Source of the DNA: Psammoneis japonica
Lineage: Eukaryota
Direction of reading: 5' to 3'
NCBI GenBank assembly: GCA_008632985.1
Contig: QPGO01000162.1
Location: 1 to 64,000 of the forward strand
DNA length: 64,000 bases
Part shown: one piece after another, positions 19,239-44,305 of the stretch
How positions within the stretch are numbered: the stretch's first letter is position 1
Layout of the letters: the number at the start of each line of letters is the position of its first letter
Notes under the pieces: generated by a model
Told to the model about the DNA's origin: nothing
Database searches by the model: none
Seen by the model: only the letters and a program-made list of their open reading frames with translations
Program-made: the position numbers and the translations under genes

Positions 19239-20030
19239 TTAATGCATCCCTTTGCTCGCATTGACTGCTCGATGCACCAGGTCCATGATTCGCCAAACTG
19301 GTGGAGTCAATAGAGTTGATCTCAATCGGAAACGAGCCGAAGCATGCTTCAAACAGTCGTGTTCCGGGTACGGAATCCCATCATCAATCCAAACAAAATG
19401 ATGCACGTCCATACTTTGACAGAGTCGTTGATACATGAACACATAATAGTGAATTCCACTGCTCCTGTTCCGCGTCGCATAAACAATGCATTCGTCATGG
19501 CGGCACCATGGGCGGCAACTACAACGTCTTGGCGGTGCAACAAACAACCAATGTCACAAAAACGTGCTGTGTCTTTGTGGTGCACACCTGGAAAACAGAC
19601 AACTGCTGAGAGCGCAACAGTGCCAAAGCAAGTGAAATTGTCAAGAGCTGGTGCATCCAGCCAGCACGATGGTAGCTCTTCTTTAACAGGGGGTGTCATC
19701 AGCACCTTCCTGCACAATGCTGGAAAAGAGCACTGTGGCAACAGAGTTGCAAAGCAAGCAGAAAGCAACAAGGTGTCATTTTGTGCTTCTTCTGTGTCAT
19801 GGGAGTCAAGATGCTGAGCAGGGGCAAGGGTGGAGCACACACTTGGCACTGGCCATGATGAGTTGGCCACTCTCATCTCAGCACTGAGGAAGCAGAGCAT
19901 CACTGCCCAATGTTGTGGCATTGGCATTGCTGCAAACATGACTCGATGGTCAAAAATCAAAACAACATGAGTGCAGGGATTTTCTTGCAACCCCTCTGCC
20001 CCCTGCTGGGAAGAAACCTTTCCATCAGGG
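19239..20030 (-). pseudogene. Glycosyltransferase family 61-like relic
   Basis: DVVVAAHGAAMTNALFMRRGTGAVEF matches the GT61 HGA(G/A)xTNxxF motif. Frameshifted. The 5' part lies in the depleted block and the 3' part (below about 19515) has normal composition. Confidence 0.65.
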
Positions 20031-20231
20031 CATGCATTTGTGCCAGAAAAAGGGTCCAGTGCCCCAACAAAGAAGAAAAGCCCAGAGCTTTGTGGGGGGA
20101 AAGGCAGAGAGCAAGGCACTCCTCTTGCAAAGAGGGTGGTCATGCTGAGTGTTTTGTGGTGGGAGCAGCCAGCAACAGAAGTCCAAGGTGCTGCCACACT
20201 GCTGCTCCAAGCAATGACAACAAACAGCAAC

Positions 20232-20401
20232 AGGAAGAGCACCAACGGGCAAGAGCAACAAGCCAAGGAGCTCCCTGCAAACTGGCAACAGTGGACAACA
20301 CATGCACCAATTTCAGAGAGATTGTTTCGACTGTCCAAAGACATCTGACTGCCACCCACAAACAAACAGTCTGACCATGCACAGTGCAGAGTCAGCTGAC
20401 A
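20232..20401 (-). repeat. 3' LTR of the Copia element
   Basis: Shares GGGCAAGAGCAACAAGCCAAGGAGCTCCCTGCAAACTGG and AAACAGTCTGACCATGCACAGTGCAGA with 27033-27221. On the minus strand it starts TGT, immediately after purine-rich AGGGTGGGA (PPT-like). Confidence 0.85.
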
Positions 20402-23400
20402 TCCCACCCTGATCCAGCATGTCCAACAGAGGAGACAAAGTGGGGTCACAGACAGAACAGAATTGGGAAGTCAACAATCAGCAAAAGTGACACATGGAGA
20501 CTGGATTGCTCTTGAAGAAGTTGGACAGGGTAAAAACAACAAAGGGCAATTCTGCAAATGCCAAAAGACAACAAATCAGGACTCAATGGCGCTGTCCCAT
20601 CATCCGATGGGCATGGCAGGCATGCAGCATTGAGCCAAGAGCTTTGGTGAGGTCACCACTCAGGTTGATGATGCCCGGAATGTGTCAAGTGACAACATGT
20701 CTGTCCTTCTTCCAATCCTGAAGGATGGGCCACTGGGCGTCAATGTGGCCAGATTGTTCAGTCGGAACCCAATTGTTGAGAATCTTGATTGCAGATTCAT
20801 TGTCAACACACAAAAGAGTGGGGCCTTTCTGGACAAAAATCCAAGTTCCCAAAGGACTGACTGAAGGCAGAGAGCAGAGAACCTGTTTGGCGGCAGTGCC
20901 AGCAGCACAAAACTTGGCTTTGGCAGAACTTGCAGCTGTCACCTTTTGCATCAATGCAAAATGGCAGCACCAGCTGGCATGCAAACAACATGCCTGGTCA
21001 TGGAATGATGATTGCAAAGGTCATTGCCACAAACAGCATCCAACAAAGCTTGCAGTTGGGTGAGAGAGTCCAGGGAACCAGGGTGAAAACAGATTCAGCT
21101 CAAGGTGAGCAAAATGATGTGAAGGTGAGGTGGGATCCTTGGTGGGCTTCTTGCATCCCACAACACTTTGCAGGTTGGAGGCACTTTGCAACCCCTTTCA
21201 ATGCATTGCAGTGCATTGGCACCAAACACAAGGCAGACTTCAAGATTGTCATGACAAGAATGCATCCAATGTTGAGGCAGCAAACAATGTGGGCATGCAA
21301 CAATTTGCCAAGAAGGTCATGACACCCAAAACCACAAAGTTCAGCTAACTCCTCATGTTCAGAGGTGCTTTCCATGGGACGAACATCAGAGTGGAATCGG
21401 AGTGGCCTGAAAATCTAAGCCTGCAATTCATCCGCAGCTGAGTGGGGCCATCCATGTGATTTCAAGATGTGGTTGATGCAGCTGTGATGCACGATCGAGG
21501 TGGAGTCATCATGCTGATGGACATCAACACCATTGAACTTGGTGCAAAGACCCAAGTGCTTGAAAGAGTTCACATCCTCACCAGGAACATGGAGTGACTT
21601 GCCAATTGAGTCAAAACTCTTGGTCATGATGGACTCTTTGGGACATGCAATTGCAAAATCATTGACCTGCCAGAGAAGAAGAACATGCTTGCCCTCAAAA
21701 GTGCCAGCACAAATGCACTTGTCATGCACTGTGTTCCAAAACAAAAGTGCAGCATCCACCAAGATGCTGTTGATGTGGTTCTCCCAAAAAATGCCGGACT
21801 CAGGGTGTCCTTGCAAGGCATGCAGGATGGGAAGTGCCTCTGGCCAATCAAGGTCAACACCAAAGCAATCCTTGTGCCAAGAGGCATGTGTGTTGTCAAT
21901 TTGGACATGGAAGGGGGTTGAAGGACAAGGGGAGTGAGCACGCATGCATTGAGCATCACCAGCAAGTGCTTGACAGGCCATGGAAGCCAAGAGAGCAAAA
22001 AACAGCTGTCGGATGGGTTGTTCCACACAGGAGGAGTGGGTGGACTGGAGGCAATGCAAAGCAGGGGCTGCACATGAAGATCCATCACAGCAGCAGTGGG
22101 AGCAGCATGTGCCATCCGTCTTGACGTCATGTTGCCAGTGAGGGTGGAGAATGGCTGCACCTTTGGGGTGCTGGGGAACTGGTTTGCCAAACATGCCCAG
22201 CTCATGGAAGAAGTGGTCCAGTTGCTTGAACTTGCCATCCAGCTCTTGTTCTTCAGGAGTCACTCTTGAGAAAAGAGAGCAAAAATGTTGAAGGCACTGG
22301 CATCCTGGTCAATTGCAGGTGAGAACTCATGGTCCATGCCATCCACAGCAGAGAAATCAATGTCTGGGAAGTGCAGTTCTGCAATGCAGTGTGCACCAGC
22401 CAATGTCAATTCAAGAACATGTTCCTCTTCATCCTCTGCAGGAGGGCAGAAAATGTTGTGCACAACCAAGGTGCACTGGAGGTGTTTGGAATCAAGTTGA
22501 TGCTCTGGAGTGAGCACACAATCTCAAACTCAGGGTTGTCTGCATCATGAAGATGGCAGAGTTCAGCAATGACCTGATCCGCAGTGAAAACATCAACACA
22601 ATCATTGGAAACTGCATGTGCACCCAAAATCATGTTCTTGGCAGCCTTGAGGGAGGAGAAAACACAAGAGGCAGTGCTGTTCCACTTGATGTCTGAGAGA
22701 CAGTTGCAGTTGAATGATGCATCCACAGCAGTGCCTGTGCCAAAGAGTGCATCCAATGGGGAGCATGTGGGATTGCCAGAAAAATGAAACTTCTCCACAG
22801 ATGATTCCATTGATTCAGCAGGGACGGGTCAGGATTTTGTCCTGTGGGAGGCAGTTCATGCCTTCATCACAGCAGAAAAGTGCTTGTCAACCTTGACACG
22901 AGATGTGGCAGGACCATGCTGCATGATGTTCTCAGTGGCATCACGGAGACAGCCAAGGAAGATGCCCTTGACTGAGTTGGAGTGCACCATTGCAGGTTGC
23001 TTCTTGTTCTTGTGGGCCCAAACACGACAACCAAATGTGCACGACACCAAAAAAAATTCCCTCTTTCCTGCAGCAAGAGTGACAGGAGCAACATCATGTC
23101 CTTGGAGGGGCAAGCATTCTTGACACAGAGACAGTGATGGAAAAGCATGGGGCCAGAACTTTGCGGGTGAGTCTGCACCAATGAGCATGGAATGGACAGC
23201 ATTCTGCACCGTCAAGGGACTGCGTTCAATGGGGCCATTCTAATTGGAGGCATCAGCCCCAGACATGCAGATCTTGCAATTGAATTCTTCCTCAAAAAGT
23301 CTGCACAATGCAGGGTCACAGAGTGCAGCTCACCACCTTGATCCACAAATGCACATTTGTCTGGATGTTTTGGTGAGTGCTCATGCAAGAATTAGCAAAT

Positions 23401-26400
23401 CCACATGATTGGAGTTGCTTTTGAAGCAGGAGCAGCACCATGGAGGCAACGGAGGTGCTGTTGGTCACACACAGCAATCCACAAGTCTGGCCACCATCAA
23501 GCCCAAGACAATCAACCACATGGTCTTTGTTCTTGAACTTCAAACCAGCCAATGCAAAATCAACCATGAGTCCTTGATGCACTTGAGCAGCAATGCAGGT
23601 GGAGTTGGGACCCATGGCATTCTCAGTCTGCTTCACTTGGGTGCAGGCAGGGCAAGTGTCCAAATGAGAAGTGCCACATGGGCAAACTTTGGGACCCCAT
23701 CAACATGGTGGCAAGCATCACAAAAGTGGTGATCACTTGGGTTTGCAAGGTGTTGGTGCCATGGGAGATGTTCAGTGTCAGCCTTGAGTGCCTGGACTGG
23801 TGCCTTCTTCTCAAGGCAAGCATCAAAAGGCATGTCTTGACAACAGTGTGAGATCTTCTTCATCTCATGCTGCAGAGCCTTCTTTTGGGGTTGGGGTTGG
23901 GGGTTGGTTTTCCTTGCAGGTGTCAATCACATGCACACAATGACTGCATCACATTCTTTGGCAAATGATGGAGCAGAGATCTTGAGCTCTTGAATGGACT
24001 CATCAACAATGTCATTCATTTTGAGGAGGATGAGGCAAAACACTTCTCATTGATCAGTTGCCCATGAATGATGACATCTTGTCTGGAGCAAAGTTGGTGT
24101 TGCGCGCACCTTGATCGTGGAACTTGAGCAAACAATCAACAGCACAGCCCTTCTTGTGATCACTCATGGATGTGCTGAAGGCCCGTTTGTTGACAAGGGT
24201 CACCTGGAGCTGTGGGGAGGGTGGCAAGCATGTGTGGCAACATGTCCAGCTTTGCTTGCCATGGGGATTCCAAGGTGTCCACAGCCATGGGGGGGCACCT
24301 TGACCAAGCACCAGGTTGACCTTGAGGGGGCATGGGTTGGACAGTGCAAAGGCTTGGCAGTGATGAAGCAGGTCCAGGTCACCAGTGCAGGAGATGCAGA
24401 CTCCAGCATCAAACTGAGCACAGTGCTTGTCACTCTCAAAATGAATGGTGTTTGCAAGGCATTGCACTTGTTGGAGTGTTCAAGGTTGAAAGGTTTGTCC
24501 AATGGTTGCTCAACAGTTCCTCTGCCCTCCCCTGATCTTGATCCCTCCCCTGATCTGCAGTGTGAAGCAATGGATCATTGTCAGGGAGAGTGATGATGCC
24601 AGGTGTTGTCAAAGAGGAGATGGGATGGGTGGCATCCACAACAGCATCTGGAGAAAGAGGTTTTGAACAAGCAGAAGGCAATGAAACGGGGGGGGCTCTT
24701 TCACAGCTGCCCCGCCATCATTGGTGTTGTCTTGGAGAGGAGAAAACAGGCTGCATTGAAGATCCAAAACCAGCTGAGATAGCCCAACTGAAAATCCAAA
24801 GGCAGAGATTCAGCAGGTGGGAGTGCTTGACCCCTCTTCCCAGAGGGCAAGTTTCCCTGTGTGCCAGCAAATGCAGCGGCAAGTTGAGCAGCCTCTCACT
24901 TCAAGAAATGGCACAAAAGCAAATGTGAAATCCCTTGATGCAAGGGTTGTTCTTCAGGATGGGACAATCTTCAAAAAGATGTTCACCAACACAAACTGAA
25001 CAAGGGCAGTTGGCAGCCTTGTTGGGCATGACCTTGAGCTTGAAAACAGATGCTGAGCAAGCAGCATGATGCAAGAGATGGCAGTTGTCTGTTGCAGGTG
25101 CATGAAGCAAGTTCAATTCATTGCAGAGAGACTTTCAAAAGTTTTGTTGCGCATGACCAGTGCATCATCAGGGGTCGAAATGTCTTTGGGTGGAGCAGGT
25201 GCTGGTGGGGCAACGTCAGCATTTGGAGGGGTGTCACAGTCCACAGCATTCACACCAAAAGAAGTGTGGGCAGAGTGTCATCACAATGTTTGTGTTGGTG
25301 GCATGGGTTCCGAGCATGCATGGAACAGTCATCCAAGCAGATCAGACTGTCTGCTGGGCTCAAAAACGTGCTGAGTGTTTCAACAATCTGTTTCTTGGTG
25401 CACTTGCACTTGCAGGCCAACAAATCTTGTTCATGTTCAGCAACCAAAGACAAGGACTTCCTCAAGCACTGGGCATTCTTGACAAAGACAGTCATCTCAT
25501 GAGGGTCATCCAAGGATGAGCCCATGTCAAAAATGAATGTGCTCAGTTGCAAAAAATCCTTGAACAACACAAAACAATTGTTGATCTGCAGGTTGCCTTC
25601 CTTGGGGCATGCATCAACCAATCACACTGCTTCCTCACAAAATGCTGGGTGAACTTGAAAAAGAATCTGTTTCAAGGTGCTGCAGCTGTTGCCACAGCAC
25701 AAGGCAACAATGCTGTGCAAGCGACTGTTCTTGGGGAACATGTTTGAGTGCAAGAGAAGCTTGTGCAAGGCATGCAAAGCTTCAAGGCAATGGATTTGCA
25801 TCTGTTGCAGGAGGTTGATGTCCTGGCTGTCAACAATTGCAAAGCCTCTGTCATCACCATGGTTTCATTTGAATCACCACAAAGGGTGTGCAAAGTGTCC
25901 ACAATCAGTGGCATGGTGCTGGAAGTTGAGATGCCACTGACAAATGCACCATGGAGAGAGTCATTGTGACAGAGACTTGGTTCATGGATGAGAGTCTTAT
26001 GATCTGGGGTTTGGCTGATGACAAAGAGGGAGCCATCAGGTGGGATGAGGTGGTCCGTTCCATCCAGGTGATGCACAGACCCACTGGAGCAGTGAACCAG
26101 TGAGTTCTTGAGGATCACTTTCTCAGACTCCTTGTGGTTGAAATGAGCTCACACATCCTTGGGCAGAGCATCTGGGTGGAACAAGAACTTGGACAAAAGG
26201 GTCATGGTGGGTGTTGTGCCAGAGCTTGTAACTTGGGATGAGGCAGCACCTGAAAGAGCTCAGTTGTCATTCAGTGCATCAATCAGATCTTGAACGTCTG
26301 CAGATCCTGAAGCATGGGACAGTGCCAGTGGGGTCTTGGGAGCATGGACTGGTGGGGATGTGGCAGCTGAGAACAACTTGCCCCAGTCCCTGAATGCATG

Positions 26401-27032
26401 TTGTGTGGAAGGAGAGAAGCACAGACATGAGATGCTGACAAAAACAATCACCTCGGTCTGCTGAGTCAAAAGGGCTGCCTTGATTTTATGGTCCATCATC
26501 TGTTGAGACAGATTGGATGGTTGATCTGATGATGCAGGGATGGAAACCTTGAGAGCGGCTCTGTTGAAGAGCAACATCACTGGAGACATGTTGAGAGGGT
26601 TGAGGGTTTCCAGCAGAATGAGCTCTCAAAGGATGTGATCCTTGAGTTGATCAATGATGTCATCCTTGGTTGTTGCATGCTTGAGATCCTCAAAAAATGA
26701 ATCCAGATTGATGTGATGACACCACAACAAAGGCTGTCAAAGTGCTTGGTGACTTCACTGCTTCAAGCATGTTGTTCAAAGACAACAGAAACCTCCTTGA
26801 GGGTGTCACAAGTGGGCTTCTTGGGGGCAGAAGGAGTCATGGTGGTGGATGAGGTGCACAAAGTTGTTGATCATGCACATGCAGAATCTGGCGTTGGTCT
26901 GCAAGAGCCTGTGCGCTGATGAAAAAAGCTGTTGGGATCAAAAATGGTGGCCGGCTTGTTCAGCTCACAAACCAAATGAATTGCAGCAGAAGTTGCAACA
27001 CAGAAGAATGACAACCTGATGAGGCCACTGCC

Positions 27033-27221
27033 TGTCAGAGCACTGGTGGGCAAGAGCAACAAGCCAAGGAGCTCCCTGCAAACTGGTGACAGTGGATGAC
27101 ACATGCACTGGCAAGAAAAAGTGAGAGAAGATCTCAGAGAGATCATCTCGACTGTCTGCCAAAGACATCTGACCATCATCTGCAAACAGTCTGACCATGC
27201 ACAGTGCAGATTCAGCCAACC
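27033..27221 (-). repeat. 5' LTR of the Copia element
   Basis: Direct repeat of 20232-20401. On the minus strand it ends ...GACA and is followed by GGCAGTGGCC, a possible mutated PBS. Confidence 0.85.
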
Positions 27222-27499
27222 ATCACATGCATTCTCAAAGCCTTGGCATGAGCTGGGAAGCAACCAATGTCAGGTTCTGAGTCTGCCCTTGGACAAAGGT
27301 GATTTGCTGCATTTGTTGTCATTTTCAGTGGTTGAAGGCCATCTGCCAGTCTGCCTGCTGGCAAGCATGCATGAGAAATGAGAAGAAGTTCACATGTGAC
27401 ATCACCTTGCAGCATGGGTGGATGACAGATGCTGCAGTGGGATGATGAAACTGGGTCATGTAGACAGGAAAAGGGAGGGGTTTGGAGTGGGAAACAGCA

Positions 27500-28170
27500 G
27501 AGCAGCACTCAACTTGGTTGAGCAATGGGCAAGTTGGTCAGCAAGGCACTTGGCAACTGCAAGAATGAGACTTTGAAGGCCCCGCTGGAGTGGTGCAGCA
27601 GTGTGATGAGAGAGGCCAAACTGGGTGAAGGGGGGCACATTTTCCCATGCCACATCAGTGGCTTGGAGGGCTCCAGAGGAGGGAGAGTGGAGTGTGCAGG
27701 TGCATGTGGTGTGGGAAGCTTGACATTGAAAGGGGGGGGGGCTTGGAGGTCCAGAACAGGTGGGGGGCTGAATGGTGTTGGTTGGGGCCAAAAAGCAAGA
27801 AATGGGTGAGACACCCATGGGCTCCCAGATGGCCAATGGCAAAAGGGATGAGGTGCGTGCCTTCTTGGTTCAGAGCAGCCACAGTGGTTGATTTGTGCTG
27901 GGGCCCACGACCACTGTTGTTGAACTTCTTCTGCTTGACACTCACATGGTGTGTGCCTTGGCAAAAGGGCTGAGTGTGAGGACAGGCAAGCCATGAGCTG
28001 GAAGGGGTGGCAGCTTTGAGTTGGTGATGTTGATGGCAAGGCACGTGTGACCCAACGGCGAAGCAGTGAAAGGGGTGGGGGTGAGTTGTGTTGGCTGCTG
28101 TTTGCCTGCATCTGTCAGTCACACACAAGCTGCTGGGTTGTGATGCGGGTGTGGGCAGCTTTGACATGCC
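27500..28170 (-). mobile_element. Possible 3' fragment of a non-LTR retrotransposon (RLE-type endonuclease region)
   Basis: KQKKF...AALNQEGTHLIPFAIGHLGAHG resembles the PFAxDxxGxxG motif at the C-terminus of RLE-bearing elements. Heavily mutated. Confidence 0.4.
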
Positions 28171-28384
28171 AGCAGAAACCCAGTTGCCCCATCAGCAATT
28201 CAAAAATTTGCATGACACCAATGGCACTTTCACAATGATGATGATGCAGCAGTGCCTCCAGTGCATTCCCACCACAGCCACACCACAGTGTGTGCTTCTT
28301 GATGTGACAAAGTTAGAAATGGAGCTGCCTCATTGGCGGCATCTCTGATGGTGTTGCTTTCAAATGAATTTGTGGACTGAATGT

Positions 28385-28980
28385 GGCGTGCATGGTGCTG
28401 GCAGCAGCAGGAGCCTTTCACTGCATTTGTGCTGGTGGCAGTTGGAGCCTGTGCACTGCTAGCAGCAATCAAGGCAGTTGCACTCTTTTCATCTGGTGGT
28501 GGTGGCGGGCACCCCTTTGTGCTGCTGGCACTGGCAGTGGTTGGAGGTTTTTGCTGCTGTCAGGCCCCAGCAGCGGTGGCAGTGGCAGCCTGTGCACTGC
28601 CAGCACTGGTGGTGGTGGGAGCCTGCACACCAATGGTGCTGGTGGTGGTTGGAGCCTTTTGCTGCCAACGCTGGTGGCAGCAGGTGCCTGTGCACTGCTG
28701 CTGTGGCACTGGTGGTGATGGGAGCCTGCTGTGTGGCTGCCAGCACTGGCAGCAGTCGGAGCCTGTGTGCCACCAGCCATCAAGGTGGCTGGATCCTTTT
28801 CATCTGGTGGTGGTGGGTGCTCTTGTGTGCTGCTGGCACTGGTGGTGGTTGGATCTTTTTTGCTGCTGCACCCGCGCACTGCTGGCACTGGTGGCAGTGG
28901 GAGCCTGCACACCACTGGCACTGGAAGTGGTTGGAGGCTTTTGCTGCTGGTGCTGGTGGCAGCAGGTGCCTGTGTGCTGC
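28385..28980. repeat. Degenerate minisatellite, unit about 30 bp (GCTGGCACTGGTGGCAGTGGGAGCCTGTGCAC-like)
   Basis: Recurrent GGCACTGGTGG and GGAGCCTG motifs. A higher-order duplication is marked by ATCAAGG...TTTTCATCTGGTGGTGGTGG near 28468-28505 and 28779-28817. Confidence 0.8.
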
Positions 28981-29150
28981 AAAAGATTCAGTGGTCCCAA
29001 GCATTTGGCAACAAAGCAAAGATCATTGCTTCATTGCAGAGTTGAGAAAAGTTGCACAACTTCCATTGCATCTTTGGCACAAAGTGGTCTGCGGCAATCT
29101 GCCTGATTTTTTGTGACAAGTCATTTAGAAAAAACCCACATGAGACACCA
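28981..29150 (+). repeat. About 165-bp dispersed repeat, copy 2
   Basis: Matches 11808-11970. Confidence 0.9.
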
Positions 29151-32100
29151 TGATGGAAGCTGCTCAGTCTAAAGAAAACTGCACTCACAATGTCCTTTTG
29201 CAGCTTCTTTAAGAAAACATGATGGGCCTTGTGTTGATTGCTTTGCAGGGGCATGCAGCAGTCTGGAAGAAAAACACAACAAACTGGCATTCCCAGTGTG
29301 CAGTCAGCCAGCACCCTTTGTGCCAAATGGCAGCACCATTCTCTCATGAACACACTTGAAAAGATGGAAAAGTGAGAATGCAAAGAAAGACATCTGTTCA
29401 TGAAATGGACCAACCCAGCAAGAAGAAGGACTTTGCTCAATGCTTTGAAACACAACTCAAGAGCAAAACAAACCTGGCTGGTTTCTCCTTGGCACCAGCA
29501 GGACAGAAAGACAGCAGGGGGTGCTGGGCCCAGAGAGGCCATTGTTGTTTCAAAAAAATCCTTCTAAAACAGGAGACAGCAATCAAAAGGGATTTTTCAA
29601 GCTGGTGAAATGTCTTCAATTGATTGTGGTCTTCAAAACTTGTTGTGATGATGCAACCCAATGGCACATCCTGCTGATCATGCACTTGCAGAACTTTCAA
29701 AATTAGACAACAACTTTCTGTGTGTCTTCATGTTCTCTCTTTCTCACAGGGAATCAAGAAAAGAAATTGAGGAAAGGAAGGAAAAAAAACCCTGGACAGC
29801 AACCAAAGGAGGCATTTGTTCAAAAAGCTTTTCATTGCTGCTGATGTCATGGGGAGTTTGCAATGATGGAACATCAGCAGTGGCATGATGCAGTCAGCAA
29901 CAGGTTCCTGTTTGGTGGCTCAAACTGTGCTTGACAATGTGCTGCCACTTCTGCTTGTTTTTCCCAAAGCTTCAAAGTGCAGCTGCCTCTGTGGCTGGCA
30001 AGACAATTGCAGACACAAGATTCACAGTGGAAAGAAAAACGTGCTTGGCTGCATTCACATCACACAGCAAGTCACTCTGTTGTGCAACAACATGCAACCC
30101 ATGACTGCAGATGGGCTGTGTTTTAACCCAAGCAACCCAGGTGTCAAGAGGAGCTGAGCAGGGACCCAGAGCATGACTTTTTCAAAGAAAGAGACTTGAA
30201 AGGCTTTGATCTTTGCAGCAATGCAAAAGGCATCAATCAATTGGAAAGTGAATGTCTTGTGAGGGGGGCACAGCTTGGAGCTGTCTGTGCAGTGATGGAG
30301 CAGCATGAACCACAGCACTTTTGGCCAATGGAGCATGAATGGCAAGCTCAAAGGGCAGCTGAAGGTGCACCTCCATGAAAACAGAACTGTGAATGAGGGC
30401 TTCCACAAGAGCACAAAGACATCAGAAATTGGAAAAAGGAAGAAAGGCCAGTGGGACCAAGACCAGCACTGACCCGGAACAAGACATTCTTGATTGGCAC
30501 AATTGCAAAAACAAGAAAAAACTCACAGAGCTGGACCCCAACTGAATGGAACATTGTGAGATTGGGATCTGCGTGCAAGTCTGGTGAGCTGGGCAATCAT
30601 CATGCAGAGCAAAGTTTTTCTTCCAAAGCCACACCAGGAACTGAAGCATGATCTGTGCACACATGATGATGCACAGGTGCAAGGAATCTGTTTGGATGAC
30701 AGCAAGGAGATGACGAGAACAACAATGTCACACAAATGCAGGCATCAGAAGGACTGGGTGTGGCTCATGTGCCATTCTCCCCTCAAGGGTTTGGCAAATG
30801 GATGCAGCAATGTGCTTCTTCTAGCTTCATTTGAAAAGATGCATCAAGATTCAAGGAGCCACAGCAGACATGTCTCATGTGATCTTGGTCTTGTCTGGCA
30901 CCACCAGATTGAAAGACAGGAGTGTTTGATCCTCTCCATTTGATGCATCATCATCTGATGTGCCATCTGGCCTGGGCCTGTCCACATGACCAAGGCTTTG
31001 TTTTTAGCTCCTCAGACTTTGAACAGCAGCACTTGTCAATGTGCTTTGCAGCAACCCTTGCCATGAGGCTTGAATCTAAAAAACCACACATCCAATTTAG
31101 AGTGCTGCTGTGAAATTGTCCAGCAAGGCTGGCATGGGCTGACCCACACTTCCAGCACACTGCAGTGCAGCAGAAGCTTGCAGGATTGGTCAGAAAGGGT
31201 GCAACCAGAGAGTGGTGCCCCACTGGAATGACTGGAGCAGAAGAAATGACACTTGATTTCATTGTGTGGTCTTTCTGGTGATGAACACAACAGCTGCACC
31301 ATGACAGCAAAGGATGGCAACATTCAGAAAACACTTCAAAAGAAACCATGTTCCACCTTTGGATTTGCTTGTGAAGCAAGCACCAGCCAGAGTCTGAAGG
31401 TTGCTCATTTTCACACCATGAAGAACTGCAGCAAGAACAGGGAGGTTGCCACTCAAAGGAGTGAGCTTGACAAGCCAGCAAGTGGAAGAAAGGGGTGGCA
31501 CAGGACTTGGAGGCATGTGACAAGGAGCCTTGAAGGTGTGGCTGGCTGGCCATTGGAAAAGTTGTTTGTCACACATGGAAACAATGCCGGATCTTGTGCA
31601 GAACAGCTGATGCATTCCACAAATGGGCCATTGTCAATTGATGCTAAAGGATGAATCAGACTCATGCTCATCAGGAGGGCAGAAATGCTGATGTGCTCCA
31701 CAAATGGATGATTGTCAATTGACACCAAAGGATGGATCACATTTGTGCTTGTCAGCACTGCAACAGAGGCAGTGCTTTTGCCAAGCAGAGTGAAGAACTT
31801 GTTTGGCCAGCAGGAACAAAGAAGAATGCTGCTTGGACAGATGGACATGGGCAGAAGCAGTTCAGAGATTTGACCAGGCATTTGTTGGTGGTTGTTGCCA
31901 AAGGGAGCAGAATTTGCACTGGATTCTGTGCTGAAAATTCCCTCACTCTGCAGAAAATTGTGAACGAGAATGGCAAGCATGCAAACCACAAGGAGTCAGC
32001 AATGCCAGTGATTTTCCAAAATGAGAAGTGTTGCTTGACTGTGGCAAAGATGAGCAATTGGCAGAGACAGCCAAAACAGGCTGTCAAGGCCCAAGGTGAC

Positions 32101-34138: not shown

Positions 34139-37100
34139 ATGGCGCCGCGTGACCTGTCGATTGCCTCTTTGTCGCAAGACAACAATGATTCCTGCCTCAA
34201 GGAGGCCGCATTTGAATCTCTCTTTACCAACAGTTTTGGAGTGATTGATGGCAATGAGCAGAGCCGTGTCAAAGCGACAATCGAGATGGCAAAATCCAAG
34301 GTTCAGTTTCACCGCGATTCCACTTGTGATCCCTCTCCGAATTGGATCGCGCTTGCCCATGTGTGGCAAAAGTCGAAGGGCAGACCTCATTTTTTTGTAG
34401 AACTGATGGCTGTGAACCGCATTGTTGCAAAGGAACTTGGGTGCAAGAGCTTGCTGCACTTTCTTTCCGCAAAAGGATGGAGTCACTCCAGTCAAGGTGC
34501 CAAACATCCTCATGCATTGGAGTGTTGCCATGCTCCCAAAGCAGAGGACATGAAAGTCGTCGGTGACAAGGCAAAATCAACAGACATTGCAACCAACATG
34601 ATGGCAAAGATTTCCATGTTGCACAAGCTTCTCCATGATCCCGGATTGTGCGACCCAAAGGGAGAGCCACTTGTCAAGCACACTGAGCTGAGAAGTTTTG
34701 AAGGGAAGGTTTTGCGTTACGCGCAATGCCTTCACATTGGTTTTTTGATTCTTCGTGACAAGATTCCACCGCACGCACCTGAAAGGAATGGTGATTGCAG
34801 TCATTGGCTGTGCTCCCTGTTCGGCGAATGTGATGAGACATCAACTTGCATCAACTTTTTGGAGAATTTCCTGGCTCTTGGTCACTGTGAGACGACCAAA
34901 GATGAATGCCCTGTGTCCTTCCCTGAATTCATAAAGTCGTTGTTCCACCAACACAAAAATTCTTGGGAAAAGCCCACGCGACTGGCGATGCTCGATGTCG
35001 AGCGAGAACAAATGTGTGCAACACATGTCGATGAGACTCTTTTAAGATGTGTGAAAATTGATCGTGTGGTTTCTGCCGCTGACAATTCCGGCAAAAGCAA
35101 GGCTGCAAGGGATCGTTTTGAGGCCATGTAGAAAGCCAGGCTTTGTGACTTTGCCACTCAGCACAAGAAGAAAGAAATCGGCAATGCAATTCCATCCGTT
35201 ACAAATGATGCTCGGAAATGAAAAAAATCCAAATGGCACGAATCCATCATGTTGTTTGATTGATTGTTTGTGCTCCTCTTCTCACCTCCAATTCTTCTGT
35301 TCTTCTTGCCACCTCTTTAGCCGCCTCCCTTTGCTCCTCAAGCCCCAGTCTCAAAAATCCCAAAGATGGCGAACCTTCTGATGTTTCTCAGAACGAATCG
35401 CTGATTCTCCAAGATGTGCCAACTCTCGAGGAACAATTTGAATGTTCCCGAACAAAGTGGCCGACCCTCGGTGTGACTTGTCAGTCGCCTCCTCCTCCGC
35501 CAGACAATTTCACAAAAGAAAAAGCTTGTGAAAGTGTTTCCTGAACCATCTCCGTTTGCGATTCCGGGTGAGGTGAAGTCACAACATTCTCACCTTGTCG
35601 TCTTTGAGGAAACCCCCATTTCAAGTTCCTTCAAGGGGAACTGTGTCAAGCACCAGTCACTCCACAGCATCTCCGATTTCTGCTTGGTGAATCACCTCCG
35701 CAAGCCCATGCATGGTTTTGAAAATGGTGCAGCTCCCAATGATCCGACGCAAGAATCGATGGTTGCAATCACTTGCCTGACCCAGTCAACCTCTCATTTT
35801 TCCAACGTGGTCACTTGTTTGCGATGCACGGACAAGATGCATCAGAAATGCTTTTTTGGATTGCGATTCAGTGTGTCGTCGACACTCCGTGCAGTGTTGG
35901 AACATGGTGAGCCGAACAAAAAAAGGGATGGACCAGAATGCAAGTTGCGCTGTCAGATCTGTTTTGGTTGTTTTTCGTGGACGGTGAGTTAGCTGAAGTG
36001 GGACCTGCTCACAAGCCTGGTGCTGTCTTTGGCAGGGACAAGTGGGAGAAGCTTCCAAAGGATGTGCAGGTGATGATGGCCTCAATCTTGGATGCCGCGC
36101 AACTCTGCGAGGACGAAATTAATCTTGTTGCTTTGAAAGAAATGCGTTCCTTCCATGACCCGTGCCGTGATGGTCTTTTCGCGGCTGAGCTCCGCAAGAT
36201 GGTTGGAGCCAAGCATATTAGAAGGGAAGGCGTGGAAATTCAAGTGAAGTGCATCTCGTCGTCCGGCAAAAAATCCGCCAATTCGAAAACCAAGCCACAC
36301 ATTGACAAAGAGGATTGTGACATGGATGGGTGCACCAAGACTGGTGCTCTTTGCTCATCACTGTGAGACGCTGTTGGTCGCTCTTGGTCGTTGAAGGTTG
36401 TCACTGCATCCAAAGGCAATGCTGGAAACCACGTCAGTTTGGCGCATGGGTGTGCCGAGTTCCGATCGCGTGTGCATGGTCATTTCGCAAAACTTGATCT
36501 GTCACATGCTGCAGAAATGATGAGATGCCGTGGCCCTTGTCGTCCTCCGTCGGGCAAGCTGGCCCACAGAAACATCAAAGATTTTTTCCTTGACCCTCAC
36601 TCTGTGTGGGTGGAAGAGGAAATTGGCAAGCCAAATCTTCCGTCCGACACAGTTGAGCATCCCGTCATTGTCATGCCAAGGAAACGTCTTCCGTTTGCCA
36701 TCGTGAAGGACTTTAATTTGTCGTGCGGTTGCTCGGCAATCATCGACAACCTCAATAGGTTGGTGCACACGATTGCTTTCGTTGCGCCATTGTGGCTGGG
36801 TGTCAAACCGGATTCTCCCGTTTTCACTGCTTGTTGTGCAACACAGATGCTGTGAAGCGTCCTTTCGTGGCTGGCGATCGTGTCCTTCATTACTTCAGAG
36901 AAGCTACGAGGCCGTTCGGCAGCATTGCGGGGGATCGCAATGACCGACGCATGCAGAGCCCAGGACTCGATTTCGAGGAGGTTCATGTGGCAGAGTGCGG
37001 GACGAAACTCAACGGTTTGATGGACTTGCTTGTTGGCGGACTGGTTGTTGTCATCGACTGGATCAATGACAATGTTGGCAAGCCAACGTTCCACAAGGCG

Positions 37101-38660
37101 ATCGAGGACATGTTTAAAACCGTGGTCCAAACATGGGATCATACAGGTGCTGATTGTGGAGAGTTCAGATGCATGAACTCTGTGCAGATGTTGATGCTGT
37201 GTGGCACGGGGATCCATCCTCACCCTGACCTTCGCAATCTTGTCTATCTGGCAGCCAAGTTGGGAGCGGCGAAGCAAATGGAGGAAATGAAGGTCCCGGT
37301 GGAGGAGCGTGATTTACTCTTGGAACACAGAGGGTGATTTTGATTTGGAAGACTGTGGGGAAAGAATGGCCCAGAGTCTTGCCATGTGACCTGAGTGTGG
37401 CTCGTGAAAAGATGGGAATCTGCGATGTCTTTTGTTCGGACAGCATCTGTTGCTCTTGTTCTCTGATGGGCAATCAATGATCAAGCAGCTTGGAAGGTGT
37501 GAATGGGAGCCAGTCCCATTCGTGTCGATTGATGAAGTTCGAGCCGAACTGGAATGGCAAAGAGAGGTTGCTTTTTCATGGCAATCACATTTGTTTTTTG
37601 TCTGATTGTGCTGACATTGTCACATTGAATTCTCGTTCTAACAGGAAGAAGGCCGCCGGTGATTTGTTGTCATTCGCAATGAACAAAAGTGACGATTGCA
37701 AGGAGGAGTCAATTGACAAGAAAACAAGCGAACTTCCAACCACTCACATGGGTGAAGAGGACAAAAGCGAAGAGCCCATTGACGATGAGCACAACCAAGT
37801 TGCACATTGCTCTGAGGGTGAAGAGGACCACAGCAACTCAGGAGATTGTTTCGCCAGTGACGAAACTGACGAGGAAGCACACAATGTGCTGTGGTTGGGG
37901 ATGACCCATCCGCTCAATGCAAGGCATCCATCTTCTCAAGAATTGTGCTCTGAGAAGGGGGTGGCCTCAGTGTCATCCGACCAACACAGGTGAGACGAGG
38001 CCCGCGCAATGGCATTTGAGGAAACTAACAAAACAATCACAAACATCATTTTGACAGTTTCTCTCCAAGACGGCCATCCTGATCTGCACTTAAATTGCAA
38101 TGTGAAAGCAAGAGATTTCGTCAAGAGAGTCAAGCAGCAGTTTGAGAAACTTGTTGATTTCGAAAATCATGGGTTTGACCAAATCATGTTGGACTGCCAC
38201 TGGATGCCAGATGGAGAGTGGCACGACAGTCATTTTGGGTTGACTCAATTTTTCCAGAATCTAATTGATCTTCGGGCCTTGCTCTCCAAAAACAAAGAAG
38301 GGGGGGCGCAGTGATTCCCTTTGCTCTTGCAACCTTCTTCCAGGTTGTCAAACAATGGAAAAAAATTGTCGGCTGTGTTTGACACACGCACAATGGACAA
38401 TGATGCTGCAAAGAGCTGTGCAAGTGCATTCTTTGCAAGCAACCTTATAACCCAAGAACAACGAGAATGGTGGTTGGGAAAGCCTTCCGATCAGGAAGAA
38501 GCTTGTCTTGGAGTTTCCGAAGAAGACATCAGAATGAAAGCAACAGAAGGTGCTCGCACCGCACTGCTTCACGTGTGCCACAATGACTTTGCCAATTCTG
38601 AAAGGATCAAATTCATCATGTTTGCAAGAAAGAGTTGGGAAATCACTGTGAGTGAATGAC
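34139..38660 (+). pseudogene. Large fragmented gene of unknown function inside the TIR element
   Basis: Protein-like consecutive + strand ORFs (34139-35131, 35528-35992, 35938-36366, 36391-36855, 36792-37337, 37490-37993, 38009-38314, 38321-38659), almost Tyr-free. Includes PHIDKEDCDMDGC at 36295-36333. Confidence 0.55.
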
Positions 38661-39387
38661 AGATTGACACGCGCACCCCATTTTAGAAACAAATCTGACC
38701 AAAAATTCCTTCTGTCCTGTGTGGCCCAAACAAATGGGGCCTTTTCTTGCGCTTCCACTGCTCCTGGACATTCTTCATAAACCAAAACATTGTCCCCAAT
38801 TGCTTCGACAGGGACAACCCGTAACTTGGGTGAGTGCTGAGTCTTCTCAGGCATTGAAAGCCAGTTGTTTCATTTGTGATCAAGCTGCCAGCGACTGACC
38901 AAGTCTGCATGCTGATGCCGGTTGCCTCACAGTTCTCTGGTCAATGTTGACAGGGCCTTCATCAAGACTGACTCATGCTCGTTGTCCTTGTCTTGTGGAT
39001 GAGAAGGGAAAAGAAGAACAACACGCAAAAAATGGCGGGAAAATGGCAAACATTGCATCATCTTCCAGATTTGGATGATTCTTGTGGGTGTGATGTGTCT
39101 GCATTTTGATTTTTTATCTGGCGTTTACAATGAACATTGTTCCTTTTTGTTTGCTGTCAAAATGCAGGACATCATCTCCGTTGAAACGCAATGACAGCCA
39201 TGTCAAAAAGCAAGTTGGACTGTTCATTGTCATGTGCAAACACATTTTCAAATTTCAATGTCACTGACAACAATTTGTGCAATGTTGTAGAGAAAAATGG
39301 AGTGGCTGGCTGTCTCAACACGACCCAGACGATGGTTGCACTGTCAAACAGCAACACTCCTCTCATTGTTGCCGTGTAAAGATCAAG

Positions 39388-40722
39388 ATGTCGTCTGCAG
39401 CACTGCCGGCAAAGAAGAGAAAGAAAAATGAGACTGTTGAGCCAATGAGCCCGAGACTTCAGGCAGTGTTGAAGAGAACAGGTGCGCAGGCAGCACATGG
39501 TGCGTTGAAATCAGAAGTTGAGAAGGTGGCTAGAAATGATCTCTTTCCACAGGTGAAGTTTCTCAGTCCATCAGAATTGGCAAGCAATGGGAGCATCTCA
39601 ATGTTTGTCAAGAAACAGATTGCGGGTGGCAACATGGACACTTCAAATTGGTCAGGAACTTGGGAGGAATGGGCAAAAAAGGCGGCAAAAAGGCAAATTG
39701 ACAATTGCAGAAACACGGTGTGTTCGGCTGTTGGGGCGGAGGCAATGGCCCGTAAGTCAAGTGACCAATGTGTGTGATTCAAGAGTTGCGTGCATCTCAC
39801 AAGAAGAAGATGGTGATGCTTTGTCTGCACAGGCGTTGTTGCCAAGGAAGAGGGAAAGGAAAAAGAAAAGAAACTCAAGGCGGCAGTCAGGAGGAAAAAG
39901 CAAAGCAGGAAAAAGTCAAGCCGTGACAAGAATGAAGAGAATGACATCCCGTTTGTGCCGACATGGGATCCGTTTGGCCTGGACACTGTCGCCGGTGGCA
40001 AACGAAGGAACAAGCAGGCATGCAAGTGGTTCTGCGATCACATCCTGCCTCAAACCAAGCAAAAGCAGGCATGGAGCAGCGCCATCAAAACTGGGAATGC
40101 ACAGGTCTCACAGTTGTTTGCGGCAGGTGACGAAGCTTTGGCGCTGTCAGCTGTGGAGAATTGTTGGCAGGTGTGGGCATGCAGGAACAAGGAGGAGGCG
40201 GTGGAAGAATTGGGTGAGGAAATGGAGCCCGAAGAAACAAGGCCTGCCCCTTGGTGCACGAAGCCAAAGAAACAATGAGTGTCTTGGGGAGACGACGGAA
40301 TCATTTTGTTCAACGATTTGTGCAAAGAGGTGACGAAAGACAGAGACTCAAAGGAGGGCAAGGAGTTTGAAAAGTGGCATGCGGAGATCAAGAAAAGCAA
40401 GTGCGAGAAGTCCAGAGAAGCAAAAAAGAAGAAGAAGACAGCACCGACCGGTGATGCAGAGAAGGTGAAGGCAATGAACAGCCCAATGGTGGAGAGCAGC
40501 ATGGACAATGACAGCAACAACAATGAGCAGGAGGAAGGTGCAAAAGGCAGTGCGAATGATGGAGGAGATGAGTCCAATGGAGACGAGTCCGATGGAGACG
40601 AGTCCAATGGAGACAAGTCCGATGATGATCATCAGCTTAGTTTGAGAGAGTTGCAGCAAGAAAATGTGTGCACAGTTGGCACAGCACTCGGTCATTGCAC
40701 TGCAGACGTGACAAGGGATTGA
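39388..40722 (+). pseudogene. Hypothetical protein relic inside the TIR element, with an acidic GDESN/D-repeat tail
   Basis: VARNDLFPQVKF, a probable intron from GTAAGT (39752) to CAG (39832), then WFCDHIL..GDEALALSAVENCWQVW..PWCT..SWGDDGIILFNDLCKEVTKDR. In-frame TGA at 40276. Confidence 0.55.
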
Positions 40723-43700
40723 CTTGACCGATGAAATGCTTTTCTTGTTTAAAACAATGTTTGTGAAAATTGACAAACCAAGGTTTGTGTGGCAATGCAA
40801 TCACGCATTGGCGTGTGGCAACAAGGTGGAGGCAGAAATGGTGATGTGGATGCAGTGAAAACAGCACACACAATTCTCAATGAGTCATTGCAATGTTGGC
40901 ATGCCAAACTTGCAACCAGAGGTTGGCCTGTCACCATGTGACAACAACGTTTTGCAATGTTTTAATAAATTGTCATCATGTAAATCCACACATTTTTAAC
41001 ATTTCCTGCACTCTGATGTGGTGACTTGTGTGCAGAATGCATCAAAGACCAGGCTCTGCATTTTTTGATGATGACATGCATTGCATGGTGCATGCATCCT
41101 GCTCAACTGTGATCTGGGCAATTGCTTGCTCATCAAACAACCAAGAATCTCATGAGATGTTTTGACAAAATGTTGTGTTGGCAATGCAAATGCTGGTGCA
41201 CCAGATCACAAAATCCTCTGCCACCTCATTCAAGCCTGACAGTGAACTCTTTTGGGGCTTTTCAATTGTGTGAACACCTTCATGATGCCCACATGACAAA
41301 TGTTGACCAATTGCAAACAGCAAGTTCCACATGAATTTGCACCAGATCACACGCATTTTGCTGATCATCCTCCCATCACACAAGACTTGGCAGGGCTCCA
41401 GTCACGTGAGAGCAGCAGGACATTCTGTGTTGTTGGCTGGTTGTCAGCTCAACAAGAGGCAACCAAGTGGGAGCAAAGAGCAACAGTGAGCAACAACTTT
41501 GTTGCATGGCAGCCTGTGCAACATTTTCCCAGCTCTGTCCTGCATGTGCAAAGTGATCCTCTGGAGTGGCCACAGGCACACTGGGAGAAGTTGGCAACAG
41601 AAGTTTGAACTTTTTTGGTTCAATTTTTTGCCAAAAAATTCCAAGCTCTGGAATCCAGAGCATCTGCCATCAATCTTCATGCACTGGCACATTTGTTTGC
41701 AGCAATTGTGGGTGGTCATTCATTGGAGAACCATTGAGAAATCATTGGGGCTGAAAACAGTGATTTTCAATCATCACAAATGGCACTGTTTGACACCAGG
41801 TGCAACTGAGAAGGCATGTCCCAGAGCTGAAACATGTGCCTGACAAAAACGCCAATGCACAGCACAACACACAGAGCCTTCATCTCATGAACAAACATTC
41901 TTCTGCAGAGTCACATCCATTGCAGCAGCAAGAACAATGAATTTTCAGGGTGCCTCTGCACAGCCACAGCATTGATTCTGCACAGAAATGAGCAGTTTGT
42001 GAATTTTTGCAGCAGAAGTTTGGACTTTTGCAACCACCTTCCAGCACTGGTGCTTGTGCAGCACAGCCAGCATCCAGAGGTGCACAAATTGTCTGTTGTT
42101 GTTTGCACATGGGCACTCACACACTCAGCACATGGGTGAATGACAGCACGCAAGGAAGCACACATGCAGATGACAAGATGATTTGTGCACCTCTCCAGCA
42201 CAGTGGGTCAAACCAATTGGTCTGGCAGGATGTTGCCAATTGCCACCATGGCCAACATAAAATGATGGAGAGTGACAGTCCAAAGCAAGAGGTGAGAAGG
42301 GCATGGCAATTTTCTTGCATGGTTGCTTGCAGCCCCTCTTTGACTTCAACTTTTCTTCTCAACACACGCCAGCTTTTGACATCAAACTCCATCTTGAGCA
42401 GCCAGAAAGTGGCACACCCACCCATCCAACATCTTCAAAAACTGTCACTGCAGCTGCCCCAGTGCTTTTTGATCAATCCATTGACTGTCCCAACCTGGGT
42501 GCAGGATCACCAAAGACAATGCCTTCTCAAGCCAGAGAGCAAGAAATGAAAAAAGAAAATTAAGACTGCAGCAACAGCAATTTGCGGGGAGATGACCACA
42601 AAGATCACTCTTTGAAATTTGCCAATTGAGAAATGTGGGAGCAATCAGTTGCTGCTGCTCATGAATGTCAGACAAATCCAAGGTTTGCAACTTCATCCAT
42701 GCTGACTGGTTTGGTGGTCTTGGGCACTGAAAAAGCCCTGTGTCTCAGTCTGATGCATTTGGCAGCTCCCTCATCTCATGTTCTCAAAACCATCTGGGCA
42801 ACATGTTTTGCTGCAATGTCCATGAAAAATTCAGTGGTGTGGTCACCTTGTGTGCAAATCAGAGTGCAAGGACAAACAAGCATGCCGCCGTCTCTTTTGA
42901 CATTGTTGAAGAGGATTTCAATGGGCATTTTCTGCATGAAGAATCCAAAGGAGATGCTTGGCATCATGTCATGCCTGAAGACATTGTTCTTCACAAGATT
43001 GGCATGGCACTCAGATGTGACAAGCTGTTGAAAGTAGAAACCTTGGCTCTGACAGCATTTCCATGCACAAAAGGCAGAGCAAATCAAACCTGACAACAAG
43101 GCATTGGAGTGGTGGCAATGCCAAGCTCAGGAGAGAAGCAGCCACATTCTCAAAGGTGTGCTCTAACAATCACATTGGAGGCATGCAATGCAGCAAGTGC
43201 AACAAATGTTGAAGAAGCTCCAAGGTTCATGAATCCAGACATGAAGTCAAAGACACAGCAGAATGAAAAGGAGTTGAAAGAGAAAGACTTCAAGCATTGC
43301 AAGTGAGTGCACAAGTGCTGCTGGGCACCCACAATGTTGGCCAAACTTTTGCTTGCCTGGTTTGCTCACATCCTTTTGCTTGTTTGGCTGTGTCATGAGC
43401 TCTTTGCAGAATGGAATGATGACATTGCACCTGTTGAATTCTCAGAGCTTGGGGTGGTTGTTTGGTTAAAACAACACAGAGCAGAGCAGTCGAGAAGAGT
43501 GCGAAGAGACACCCCTTGAGAGTGCTGCACACACAAATGACACAAGAGAGCAAACAAAAGTGGATTCTCAAACAGCCTTGAAGCCCCATTGCATTGAAAC
43601 CACTTTTGATTTCAAACTTGCTCCAAAAACAACAATGGAAGAAGATGACAATGACATGAGTTTTTCCACGATGCTGGAAATTTGCCACATGTTTGTTGGG

Positions 43701-44305
43701 CACATTGGACTCAAATGCAAGGAAACTGTGAAAGAGGCTGTGCAGATCAAGTGTGGAAATCTTTGCTGGCAAGCTGAAGGGACTTGCTCACTGCTTTTTT
43801 CCTGAAGCAAATCATGGTGCATGTTCGGAGCGCTGAAACAAGGCCTCTTTGTGCACGCAATGGCAACAATCTCAAATCCCACAGCAACTGCGGAGGAAAG
43901 TGGTCCATGCATTTGAGACTCTTTGACTTATGTTGCGCGAATCTTCTTAGCTTTCACACAAGCATGTTTTATGCTTTTAGCCCTGGCACCTGACTCTACC
44001 TACTCTCTAGCTCTAGAGCTACAGCAGCTAGAGTAGAGAGAGAGGGAAGTCAGACCAACACGACGGGTTAGCGTGTGCAACGTCCGGGTTTGCCACCAGA
44101 ACCTGACACCAGAGCCCCTGATCAGGTCGCTAACGACTTTGTTATCGACGCTGCCTGGTGCGGGGTGGCGGGTCCACGATCCGCGCGATCGATCCGGAGA
44201 GAAAGAGATCATACATACAGTACGGTGGTACAGCAACCGTCACACCAAAAACGAAAACGCAATACGTGCTCTAATCACTTCTCGCCCTCCTCTTACTTGT
44301 AAAGA

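Follow-up and report, generated by a model that had tools for sequence, protein, structure and literature searches.

Near-complete loss of TpA from gene-free blocks of a diatom genome points to a TpA-specific A:T to G:C hypermutation process

We analyzed a stretch of 64,000 nucleotides from the diatom Psammoneis japonica (contig QPGO01000162.1, positions 1 to 64,000, GenBank assembly GCA_008632985.1; hereafter the window), in which gene-bearing DNA alternates with multi-kilobase blocks almost devoid of the dinucleotide TpA. Dinucleotide counts normalized by base composition, taken in 1-kb windows, as 200-bp density maps and as segment totals, all within this one 64-kb window, place four such blocks at 1–3525, 10172–15307, 19521–43928, and 51493–60498. 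This reproduces almost to the base the four TpA-poor blocks with excess TpG and CpA described in an earlier interpretation of the letters alone, made without database searches (the sequence-only reading). Inside the blocks the observed/expected ratio (O/E) of TpA is 0.03–0.17 and that of TpG and CpA 1.39–2.02 (segment totals), whereas the four intervening segments, which carry eukaryotic genes (an intronless SGT1 with TPR-CS-SGS architecture, PP2C, MYG1, and ribosomal protein L1/L10a), show values of 0.57–0.74 for TA, 0.92–1.11 for CG, and 1.07–1.30 for TG/CA; neighboring DNA is thus as ordinary in TA and CG as that reading had stated. The depletion is far outside chance: Between 19600 and 43900, 79 TA are observed against 1,615 expected by base composition.

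The blocks differ internally in how much CpG they retain. Block 1 (1–3525), which continues past the start of the window, holds 8 TA against 233 expected (O/E 0.03) at a CG O/E of 0.13; block 2 (10172–15307) holds 17 against 331 (0.05; CG 0.25), sub-block 3a (19521–32950) 25 against 856 (0.03; CG 0.10), and sub-block 3c (40931–43928) 9 against 221 (0.04; CG 0.10). Together with sub-block 4b (54051–58900; TA 0.03, CG 0.14), these are the old, hypermutated parts. CpG is retained in three further TA-poor sub-blocks, the young ones: 3b (32951–40930, plus strand; 45 TA against 545, O/E 0.08; CG 0.63), which is an unclassified high-copy element, 4a (51493–54050; TA 0.08), where CpG is kept in part (0.58), and 4c (58901–60498; TA 0.17, CG 0.91), the least advanced segment. 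The claim that the blocks are also mostly CpG-poor therefore holds for the old sub-blocks (0.10–0.25) but not for these three (0.58–0.91). No segment of the window is CpG-poor but TA-normal.

The block edges, as seen in TA, are sharp to tens of bases, and they adjoin the 5' ends of genes. At the right edge of block 3, a TA at 43467 is followed by dense TAs from 43929 onward, and at the left edge of block 4 the TA at 51492 is followed by the next one only at 51765. The change is specific to TpA, and other contexts of adenine are spared: AA has an O/E of 0.83–1.53 across all 1-kb windows and a frequency in the blocks 1.07 times that in normal DNA, and AA/TT, AT, AG, and GA stand at 0.87–1.20 of their normal-DNA frequencies. 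Error-prone repair of the Pol eta type, with its WA>WG signature, had been put forward as one candidate mechanism; we rejected it, as AA is not depleted.

The mass balance of pyrimidine–purine (YpR) steps indicates where the missing dinucleotides went. Normal DNA has 242.1 YpR steps per kb and the blocks 241.4, while within this total TA falls from 43.1 to 3.4 per kb (−39.7) and CG from 54.6 to 16.4 (−38.2), and TG rises from 74.5 to 110.0 (+35.5) and CA from 69.9 to 111.6 (+41.7). The G+C content does not differ (0.455–0.493 in the blocks and 0.449–0.482 outside), because the G:C pair gained with each TA>TG/CA change is offset by the one lost with each CG>TG/CA change.

A polarizing reference is available inside the window. 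A gene fragment in block 2 (12218–13163) has a paralog of normal composition outside the blocks (8983–9921), about 2.3 kb away, with 74% identity over 974 columns (self-BLAST). The 20 TA of the normal copy correspond in the block copy to CA at nine positions, TG at six, and other dinucleotides at four, with a single TA kept; the 56 CG correspond to TG at 24 and CA at 24, with four kept. The remaining dinucleotides are kept at 55–82%, and the comparison of AA (74% kept) with TA (5%) bears out the excess of A>G at TpA over other A contexts on which the sequence-only reading had staked its case. Substitutions are almost only A>G/T>C at TpA, the remaining transitions being accounted for by CpG decay. 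Taken together, the mass balance and the paralog pair support a reading of the blocks as the probable product of TA>TG/CA, that is, A:T>G:C at either pair and on both strands, plus CG>TG/CA.

The same changes can be read from a protein-coding element. Sub-block 3a contains a Copia-like polyprotein region of a long terminal repeat (LTR) retrotransposon, from gag to RNase H (20590–24470, minus strand), which is frameshifted and has a TA O/E of 0.016. It is nearly full length: A tblastn search with the homolog P0123 aligns residues 11–1277 of 1,280, and its reverse transcriptase (RT) open reading frame (ORF; 21418–22308) has 1,005 public homologs at E ≤ 1e-3. None of 37 tyrosine positions of P0123 is Tyr in the window; 18 are His, 13 Cys, three Phe, and three other residues. 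Only 8 of 82 arginine positions are kept, and the others include 15 His, 14 Cys, and 9 Gln. At eight columns where 150 public RT homologs mostly carry Tyr, the residues found in the window are HHHHHCSC. These fates are exactly the outcomes predicted for TAY>CAY/TGY and CGN>CAN/TGN (Y, pyrimidine), and over the length of the element His (from TA>CA) and Cys (from TA>TG) are intermingled. The earlier claim of A:T to G:C change at TpA on both strands is thus upheld by three comparisons: the mass balance, the paralog pair, and the Tyr and Arg fates relative to intact homologs.

Related Copia loci in metagenomes have ordinary TA: Across 80 of them the TA O/E is 0.28–0.80 (median 0.62) against 0.016 here, and none of the 80 is TA-free, although the scan patterns and ranking favor intact copies, so that these loci are uninformative on how frequent the footprint is. 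Judging from these sequences, TA depletion is not a trait of the Copia family. Among 138 other public Copia RT homologs, three (P0229, P0224, and P0235) show the Tyr>Cys/His pattern; at the eight conserved Tyr columns P0229 and P0224 retain no Tyr and P0235 retains one. This hints that TA-erased Copia copies may exist in other public assemblies.

Duplicates within the blocks allow the products of the process to be compared with each other. A local tandem duplication (28432–28698 and 28746–28980) has diverged by independent TG/CA resolution, with eight adjacent CA/TG discordances making up 16 of its 40 mismatches. A putative 3' LTR of the Copia-like element (20236–20396, minus strand) pairs with 27037–27216 (minus strand), either the putative 5' LTR or a dispersed copy, at 76% identity over 184 columns; the flanks are unrelated on both sides, and there are four CA/TG discordances among 18 mismatches. 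A further repeat is dispersed between blocks, at 11808–11971 in block 2 and again at 28981–29151 (self-comparison). Adjacent CA/TG double changes are expected when copies of one ancestral TA or CG decay independently, and they rule out a single-stranded RNA intermediate. Over the whole of block 3, TG (2,691) and CA (2,631) are balanced between strands. The mutation thus happened in place and struck both strands of a single element.

Sequencing data comprise three runs of one sample, of which X1 is a DNA run. One X1 contig matches 30001–33103 without a single difference. Near-copies or alleles of sub-block 3c in the same run (41.0–43.3 kb) show a CA/TG swap in 7 of 30 difference groups among those listed, and such swaps between the window and near-identical contigs hint at de novo occurrence.

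Loss of TpA precedes loss of CpG and is separable from it. In the three young sub-blocks TpA has all but vanished while most CpG is still in place, which makes the TpA process the faster or the earlier of the two. CpG decay forms a second, later layer, which has reached 48 of the 56 CG compared between the paralogs and has brought the CG O/E to 0.10–0.25 in the old sub-blocks. This layer resembles the decay of 5-methylcytosine (5mC) at CpG, with CG>TG/CA in the old sub-blocks and Arg>His/Cys/Gln in the Copia element; 5mC decay, however, cannot remove TpA, lags behind TpA loss, and is slight or absent in the three young sub-blocks.

TpA loss also depends on the flanking bases. Retention of TA relative to normal DNA, strand-symmetrized and sorted by flank class, is lowest for RTAY (R, purine), at 0.00 in old and 0.06 in young blocks, intermediate for RTAR/YTAY (0.03 and 0.13), and highest for YTAR (0.17 and 0.31), so that TAY is preferred over TAR by about 2.4:1. 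A model in which each TpA adenine is hit independently, at rate a before a pyrimidine and b before a purine, fits the young blocks with a = 1.41 and b = 0.585; the sum of 1.99 compares with 2.04 observed. It follows from independent adenines that RTAR should become RCAR more than RTGR, and between purine flanks the gain of CA indeed exceeds that of TG (847 versus 496 in old and 183 versus 113 in young blocks).

Taken as a whole, these data demonstrate a TpA-specific A:T>G:C process acting on double-stranded chromosomal DNA in sharply bounded, gene-free domains, laid over by slower CpG decay. The sequence-only reading knew of no described counterpart for a process of this kind; this view is superseded by a report on the chlorarachniophyte Bigelowiella natans, in which integrated DNA of nucleocytoplasmic large DNA viruses (NCLDV) as well as of virophages undergoes A:T>G:C hypermutation restricted to TpA (Mettrop et al., bioRxiv 10.64898/2026.01.13.699255). 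As its main text describes, 230 of 231 mutations in two hypermutable viral regions of mutation-accumulation lines were A>G/T>C, all at TpA, at a rate of about 6e-7 per site per generation (range 1e-7 to 1e-6) and in some lines only; the genome contains TpA-poor, CpA+TpG-rich clusters enriched in Pfam domains of the transposable element (TE) type, and ADAT2 is proposed as the candidate enzyme (Mettrop et al.).

The two systems share the change itself, TpA>TpG/CpA on both strands, its confinement to discrete foreign or mobile regions beside normal genes, and the loss of TpA with gain of CpA and TpG. They differ in several respects. B. natans is a rhizarian and P. japonica a stramenopile. Depletion is saturated here (TA O/E 0.03), whereas the NCLDV region of B. 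natans is given a Rho of 0.45. In place of viral DNA, the process here has acted on a Copia element, on the unclassified high-copy element of sub-block 3b, and on duplicated fragments; no viral genes were recognized in the blocks. CpG decay overlays the footprint in the diatom and a 3' flank bias accompanies it; the main text of the preprint mentions neither CpG nor diatoms, stramenopiles, or trinucleotide contexts, and no 3' flank bias appears there. Finally, the B. natans lines provide de novo events, whereas the footprint here is read from sequence. Full-text literature searches found no report of TpA hypermutation in diatoms, and a word search of a 2009 paper on diatom retrotransposons (PMC2806351) returned only a remark on CpG methylation. 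The window thus provides a second, distant lineage for TpA-erasing hypermutation, at saturation and with a TAY>TAR flank bias.

We consider it likely that the blocks are silenced mobile and duplicated nuclear DNA of the diatom, mutated in place by a process specific for TpA>TpG/CpA. Either A:T pair of a TpA is converted to G:C, on both strands, and conversion halts within tens of bases at the block edges. It comes close to saturation at TpA before decay of CpG to TpG/CpA shows, with TG and CA as the common sink and a constant G+C content. In the mechanism we propose, the lesion would be an enzymatic deamination of adenine to inosine, read as G, within 5'-TA and with TAY favored over TAR. The enzyme may be a TadA/ADAT2-type deaminase that is recruited by silent chromatin and not by homologous sequence; we make this assignment of class tentatively. 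TadA, ADAT2–ADAT3, and their repurposed forms, such as adenine base editors and the editing of mRNA in the sexual stage of filamentous fungi, perform A>I deamination. The natural substrate of TadA/ADAT2 is the U33-A34 of the anticodon loop, which amounts to an inherent preference for a 5' U/T, and Escherichia coli TadA reads UAC; the TA/TAY context resembles this substrate.

Under the genetic code, no new in-frame stop can result from TA>TG/CA. Elements would instead be inactivated through the loss of Tyr codons, of TAA and TAG stops, and of signals that contain a TA, TATA boxes and AATAAA among them, hence by missense changes and regulatory loss, unlike in repeat-induced point mutation (RIP). 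RIP, known from ascomycetes and dependent on RID and DIM-2, makes C:G>T:A changes mostly at CpA, which increase TpA and A+T and introduce stop codons. The resemblance lies in transitions that riddle mobile and duplicated DNA and in a dinucleotide footprint confined to blocks beside normal genes; the opposition lies in TpA vanishing, G+C staying constant, and no stop codon being possible. The earlier view that this is not RIP stands, with TpA removed and G+C unchanged.

The description of the blocks as TEs and duplicates, and of the process as repeat-targeted, fared less evenly. In its favor are one Copia-like element, a family of about 70–450 copies, tandem and dispersed duplicates, and the duplicated gene fragment in block 2; on the other side, one weak TE match to Pfam among 80 ORFs, the low copy number of most old block DNA, and the unmutated paralog nearby all speak against it. 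The unmutated paralog, about 2.3 kb from its mutated copy, and the single-copy target in B. natans suggest to us that the process is aimed at domains and not at homologous sequence.

The high-copy element of sub-block 3b deserves separate description. It includes a series of ORFs on the plus strand, one of 421 amino acids (33866–35128) with a single public homolog, P0121, at 60% identity; the 18 Tyr of P0121 correspond to eight Cys, five His, three Phe, one Tyr, and one Ile, so that 13 of 18 have gone to Cys or His and give a further measure of the direction of change. Word depth over 32951–40930 in run X1 is 4,157–26,863, against 59.5 over single-copy genes, which gives about 70–450 copies. 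We found no LTR or terminal inverted repeat in the element, no homolog of the ORF at 39557–40330, nothing below E = 0.07 in sequence searches of the PDB with three of its ORFs, and no relative of P0121 among viral contigs. Near its end, at 40564–40623, a 15-nt unit (GGAGAYGAGTCCRAT) occurs in four head-to-tail copies. In one X1 contig, position 40929 is followed by 37 other letters and then by 33302, and this TA-less element may elsewhere in the genome be arranged head-to-tail or be circular. In run X1 just 220 variable places are seen over 20 kb compared, against about 290 estimated former TA sites in the element; the copies apparently share their TG/CA resolution, and the family would therefore have multiplied after TpA loss.

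Beyond the process itself, we put forward, more guardedly than the assignment of enzyme class, a wider scenario. Diatoms and chlorarachniophytes, distant lineages within SAR, may share a dedicated defense mutator that strips TpA from silenced mobile DNA faster than methylated CpG decays and is probably a DNA adenine deaminase recruited by chromatin and working at 5'-TA. An element that has become TpA-less would then be immune and free to multiply anew, a course suggested by the TA-less family of about 70–450 copies.

Several points weigh against the interpretation of the blocks as silenced DNA mutated in place at TpA, or limit it. The direction of change is taken from outgroups rather than from de novo events. 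The flank rule appears in the Tyr codons only as a trend (16 Cys and 13 His after a preceding pyrimidine, 10 Cys and 13 His after a preceding purine), and the flank pattern could instead stem from regeneration of TA by C>T at YCAR. Most block DNA is without a recognizable TE domain, with one weak RVT_2 match in 80 ORFs. In the high-copy family one TG/CA resolution seems to be common to the copies; for that family, high copy number does not speak for repeat-induced mutation, and its spread was not halted by the process. Run X1 possibly derives from the source sample of the assembly itself and its platform is not on record, which makes it weak independent support. Amphioxus ADAT2, which does act on DNA, prefers GAA for A, not TA, and TCG for C (PMC10354150). 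Lastly, deamination of adenine and a lesion of thymine are indistinguishable from the letters, and this brings in the first of the alternatives.

A thymine lesion would arise if a TET/JBP-type dioxygenase or alkylation modified the T of TpA in silent chromatin, for instance to 5-hydroxymethyl- or 5-formyluracil; mispairing of the modified base with G would then yield T>C on either strand. Kinetoplastid telomeres and dinoflagellate DNA carry base J and 5-hydroxymethyluracil preferentially at TpA, and 5-formyluracil is a base that can pair with G. All A:T>G:C observations fit this route equally well, with RTA>RCA mirroring TAY>TGY. Nothing in the sequence favors it, however; such a mutagenic outcome is not documented in the literature examined, and the authors of the B. 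natans study, in the main text, favor a deaminase. We regard it as unlikely.

A homology-dependent process like RIP, in which duplicates are recognized, perhaps premeiotically, and both copies are mutated at TpA, would account for the duplicates and the high-copy family within the blocks and for sharp edges that look like the ends of repeat units. The paralog pair is at odds with it, as TA and CG are ordinary in 8983–9921 but the copy at 12218–13163 is saturated; in this single case the homology dependence of RIP does not hold. The blocks moreover run on across unrelated, now low-copy sequence, and the main target in B. natans is a single-copy viral insertion (Mettrop et al., 10.64898/2026.01.13.699255), and we hold this route to be quite unlikely.

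It is very unlikely that the elements simply descend from TA-less masters or evolved TA avoidance under selection. The high-copy family, which apparently shares TG/CA states (the 220 variable places noted above) and was amplified TA-less, would fit; conserved Tyr codons replaced by Cys and His, broken reading frames, the ordinary TA of the 80 Copia relatives, the independent TG and CA resolution of duplicates inside the blocks, and the duplicated host-like fragment at 12218–13163, hit as well, do not.

An artefact, that is, base-calling or assembly error on modified DNA, can draw on the methylation of diatom TEs (CpG methylation at a retrotransposon is mentioned in PMC2806351) and on the unrecorded platform of X1. 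We judge it highly improbable: The X1 contig repeats 3.1 kb of mosaic TG/CA sequence exactly, a strand-specific miscall would yield all TG or all CA rather than an interleaved mosaic, the Tyr>Cys/His pattern recurs in 3 of 138 other public Copia RT proteins, and the B. natans signature was seen with Illumina reads (Mettrop et al., 10.64898/2026.01.13.699255).

Other deaminase-made, clustered transitions fixed in genomes are known from ADAR and APOBEC editing of retroelements; ADAR action is strand-limited and passes through RNA, and APOBEC makes C>T at TC/CC, so that neither gives symmetric TA>TG/CA in place. Hyperediting of retroelement transcripts from A to I by an ADAR-like enzyme, followed by reverse transcription and integration, would agree with the preference of ADARs for a 5' U, but we give it next to no weight, given that strands are hit equally (18 His and 13 Cys in Copia, 2,691 TG and 2,631 CA in block 3), that the 3' preference is for a pyrimidine and not for G, that putative LTRs and tandem copies diverged after insertion, that nonretroelement DNA and whole multielement blocks are affected, and that ADARs are, to our knowledge, confined to animals.

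The preferred reading, a TpA-specific process acting in place on silenced DNA, also bears on how ORFs at the locus are to be interpreted. TAA and TAG are almost gone from the blocks, and long ORFs there are no evidence of genes for this reason. Pfam searches with 11 long ORFs and 80 block ORFs of at least 130 amino acids gave one weak RVT_2 as the sole TE-like match; the five such ORFs of block 1 had no Pfam match. The older block parts, 3a among them, are mostly low-copy in run X1. An Rfam scan of the whole window gave no matches.

Among the genes of the normal segments, SGT1 (44351–45677) has its closest named relatives in the raphid pennate diatoms Nitzschia, Seminavis, and Cylindrotheca (44–48% identity), the best unnamed matches reaching 50–52%; all named matches in the list are diatoms. 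This sets the host apart from B. natans, whose genes are rich in introns, unlike the SGT1 gene here. Run X2, listed as "DNA?", resembles RNA: An 83-nt GT..AG skip at 49559–49643 marks an intron. Its contigs lie only over 44351–50000, where one spans the SGT1 gene without gaps, plus short patches at 42535–43966; their absence over the blocks was given no weight as evidence. A transcript-like X2 contig of 2,591 nt matches just four short patches within 42535–43966 and has loose ends that contain TA and CG; sub-block 3c may contain a hypermutated pseudocopy of an expressed gene.

Two ORFs lie at or near block margins. The edge of block 3 is straddled by an ORF of 373 amino acids (19352–20470, minus strand), of which only the C-terminal end, at the edge, matches Glyco_transf_61 weakly (E = 1.5e-4, below the Pfam cut-off), with no match for the portion within the block; the block may have cut short or overrun a gene here. 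In sub-block 4c, an F-box-like ORF (59679–60332, minus strand) has one Tyr in 218 amino acids and may represent a host-type gene at an early stage of the process. Just outside three edges, adjoining gene 5' ends, CTAC/GTAC/CTAG motifs cluster at 5–6-base spacing (43997–44034, 51330–51383, and 60522–60551); telomere-like repeats at the block edges were considered and rejected on inspection of the sequence. The sole ambiguous base of the window is a lone N at 5467, in A+T-rich normal DNA.

RIP is the textbook case of a genome that mutates its own repeats. A saturated TpA footprint in a diatom means that TpA erasure is no curiosity of one species or of viral insertions, and a second lineage enables a comparative hunt for the gene, among candidates common to both lineages and absent where the footprint is absent. 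The window supplies testable details for such work: TAY over TAR, both strands, sharp domain edges, and TpA loss before CpG loss. There is also a warning for annotation, as TA-free DNA gives long spurious ORFs and Tyr-less pseudoproteins. If the proposed mechanism is true, a natural adenine deaminase acting on double-stranded chromatin DNA would be of interest to base-editing research, and the immunity of TpA-less elements, together with their renewed multiplication, would amount to an arms race over one dinucleotide.

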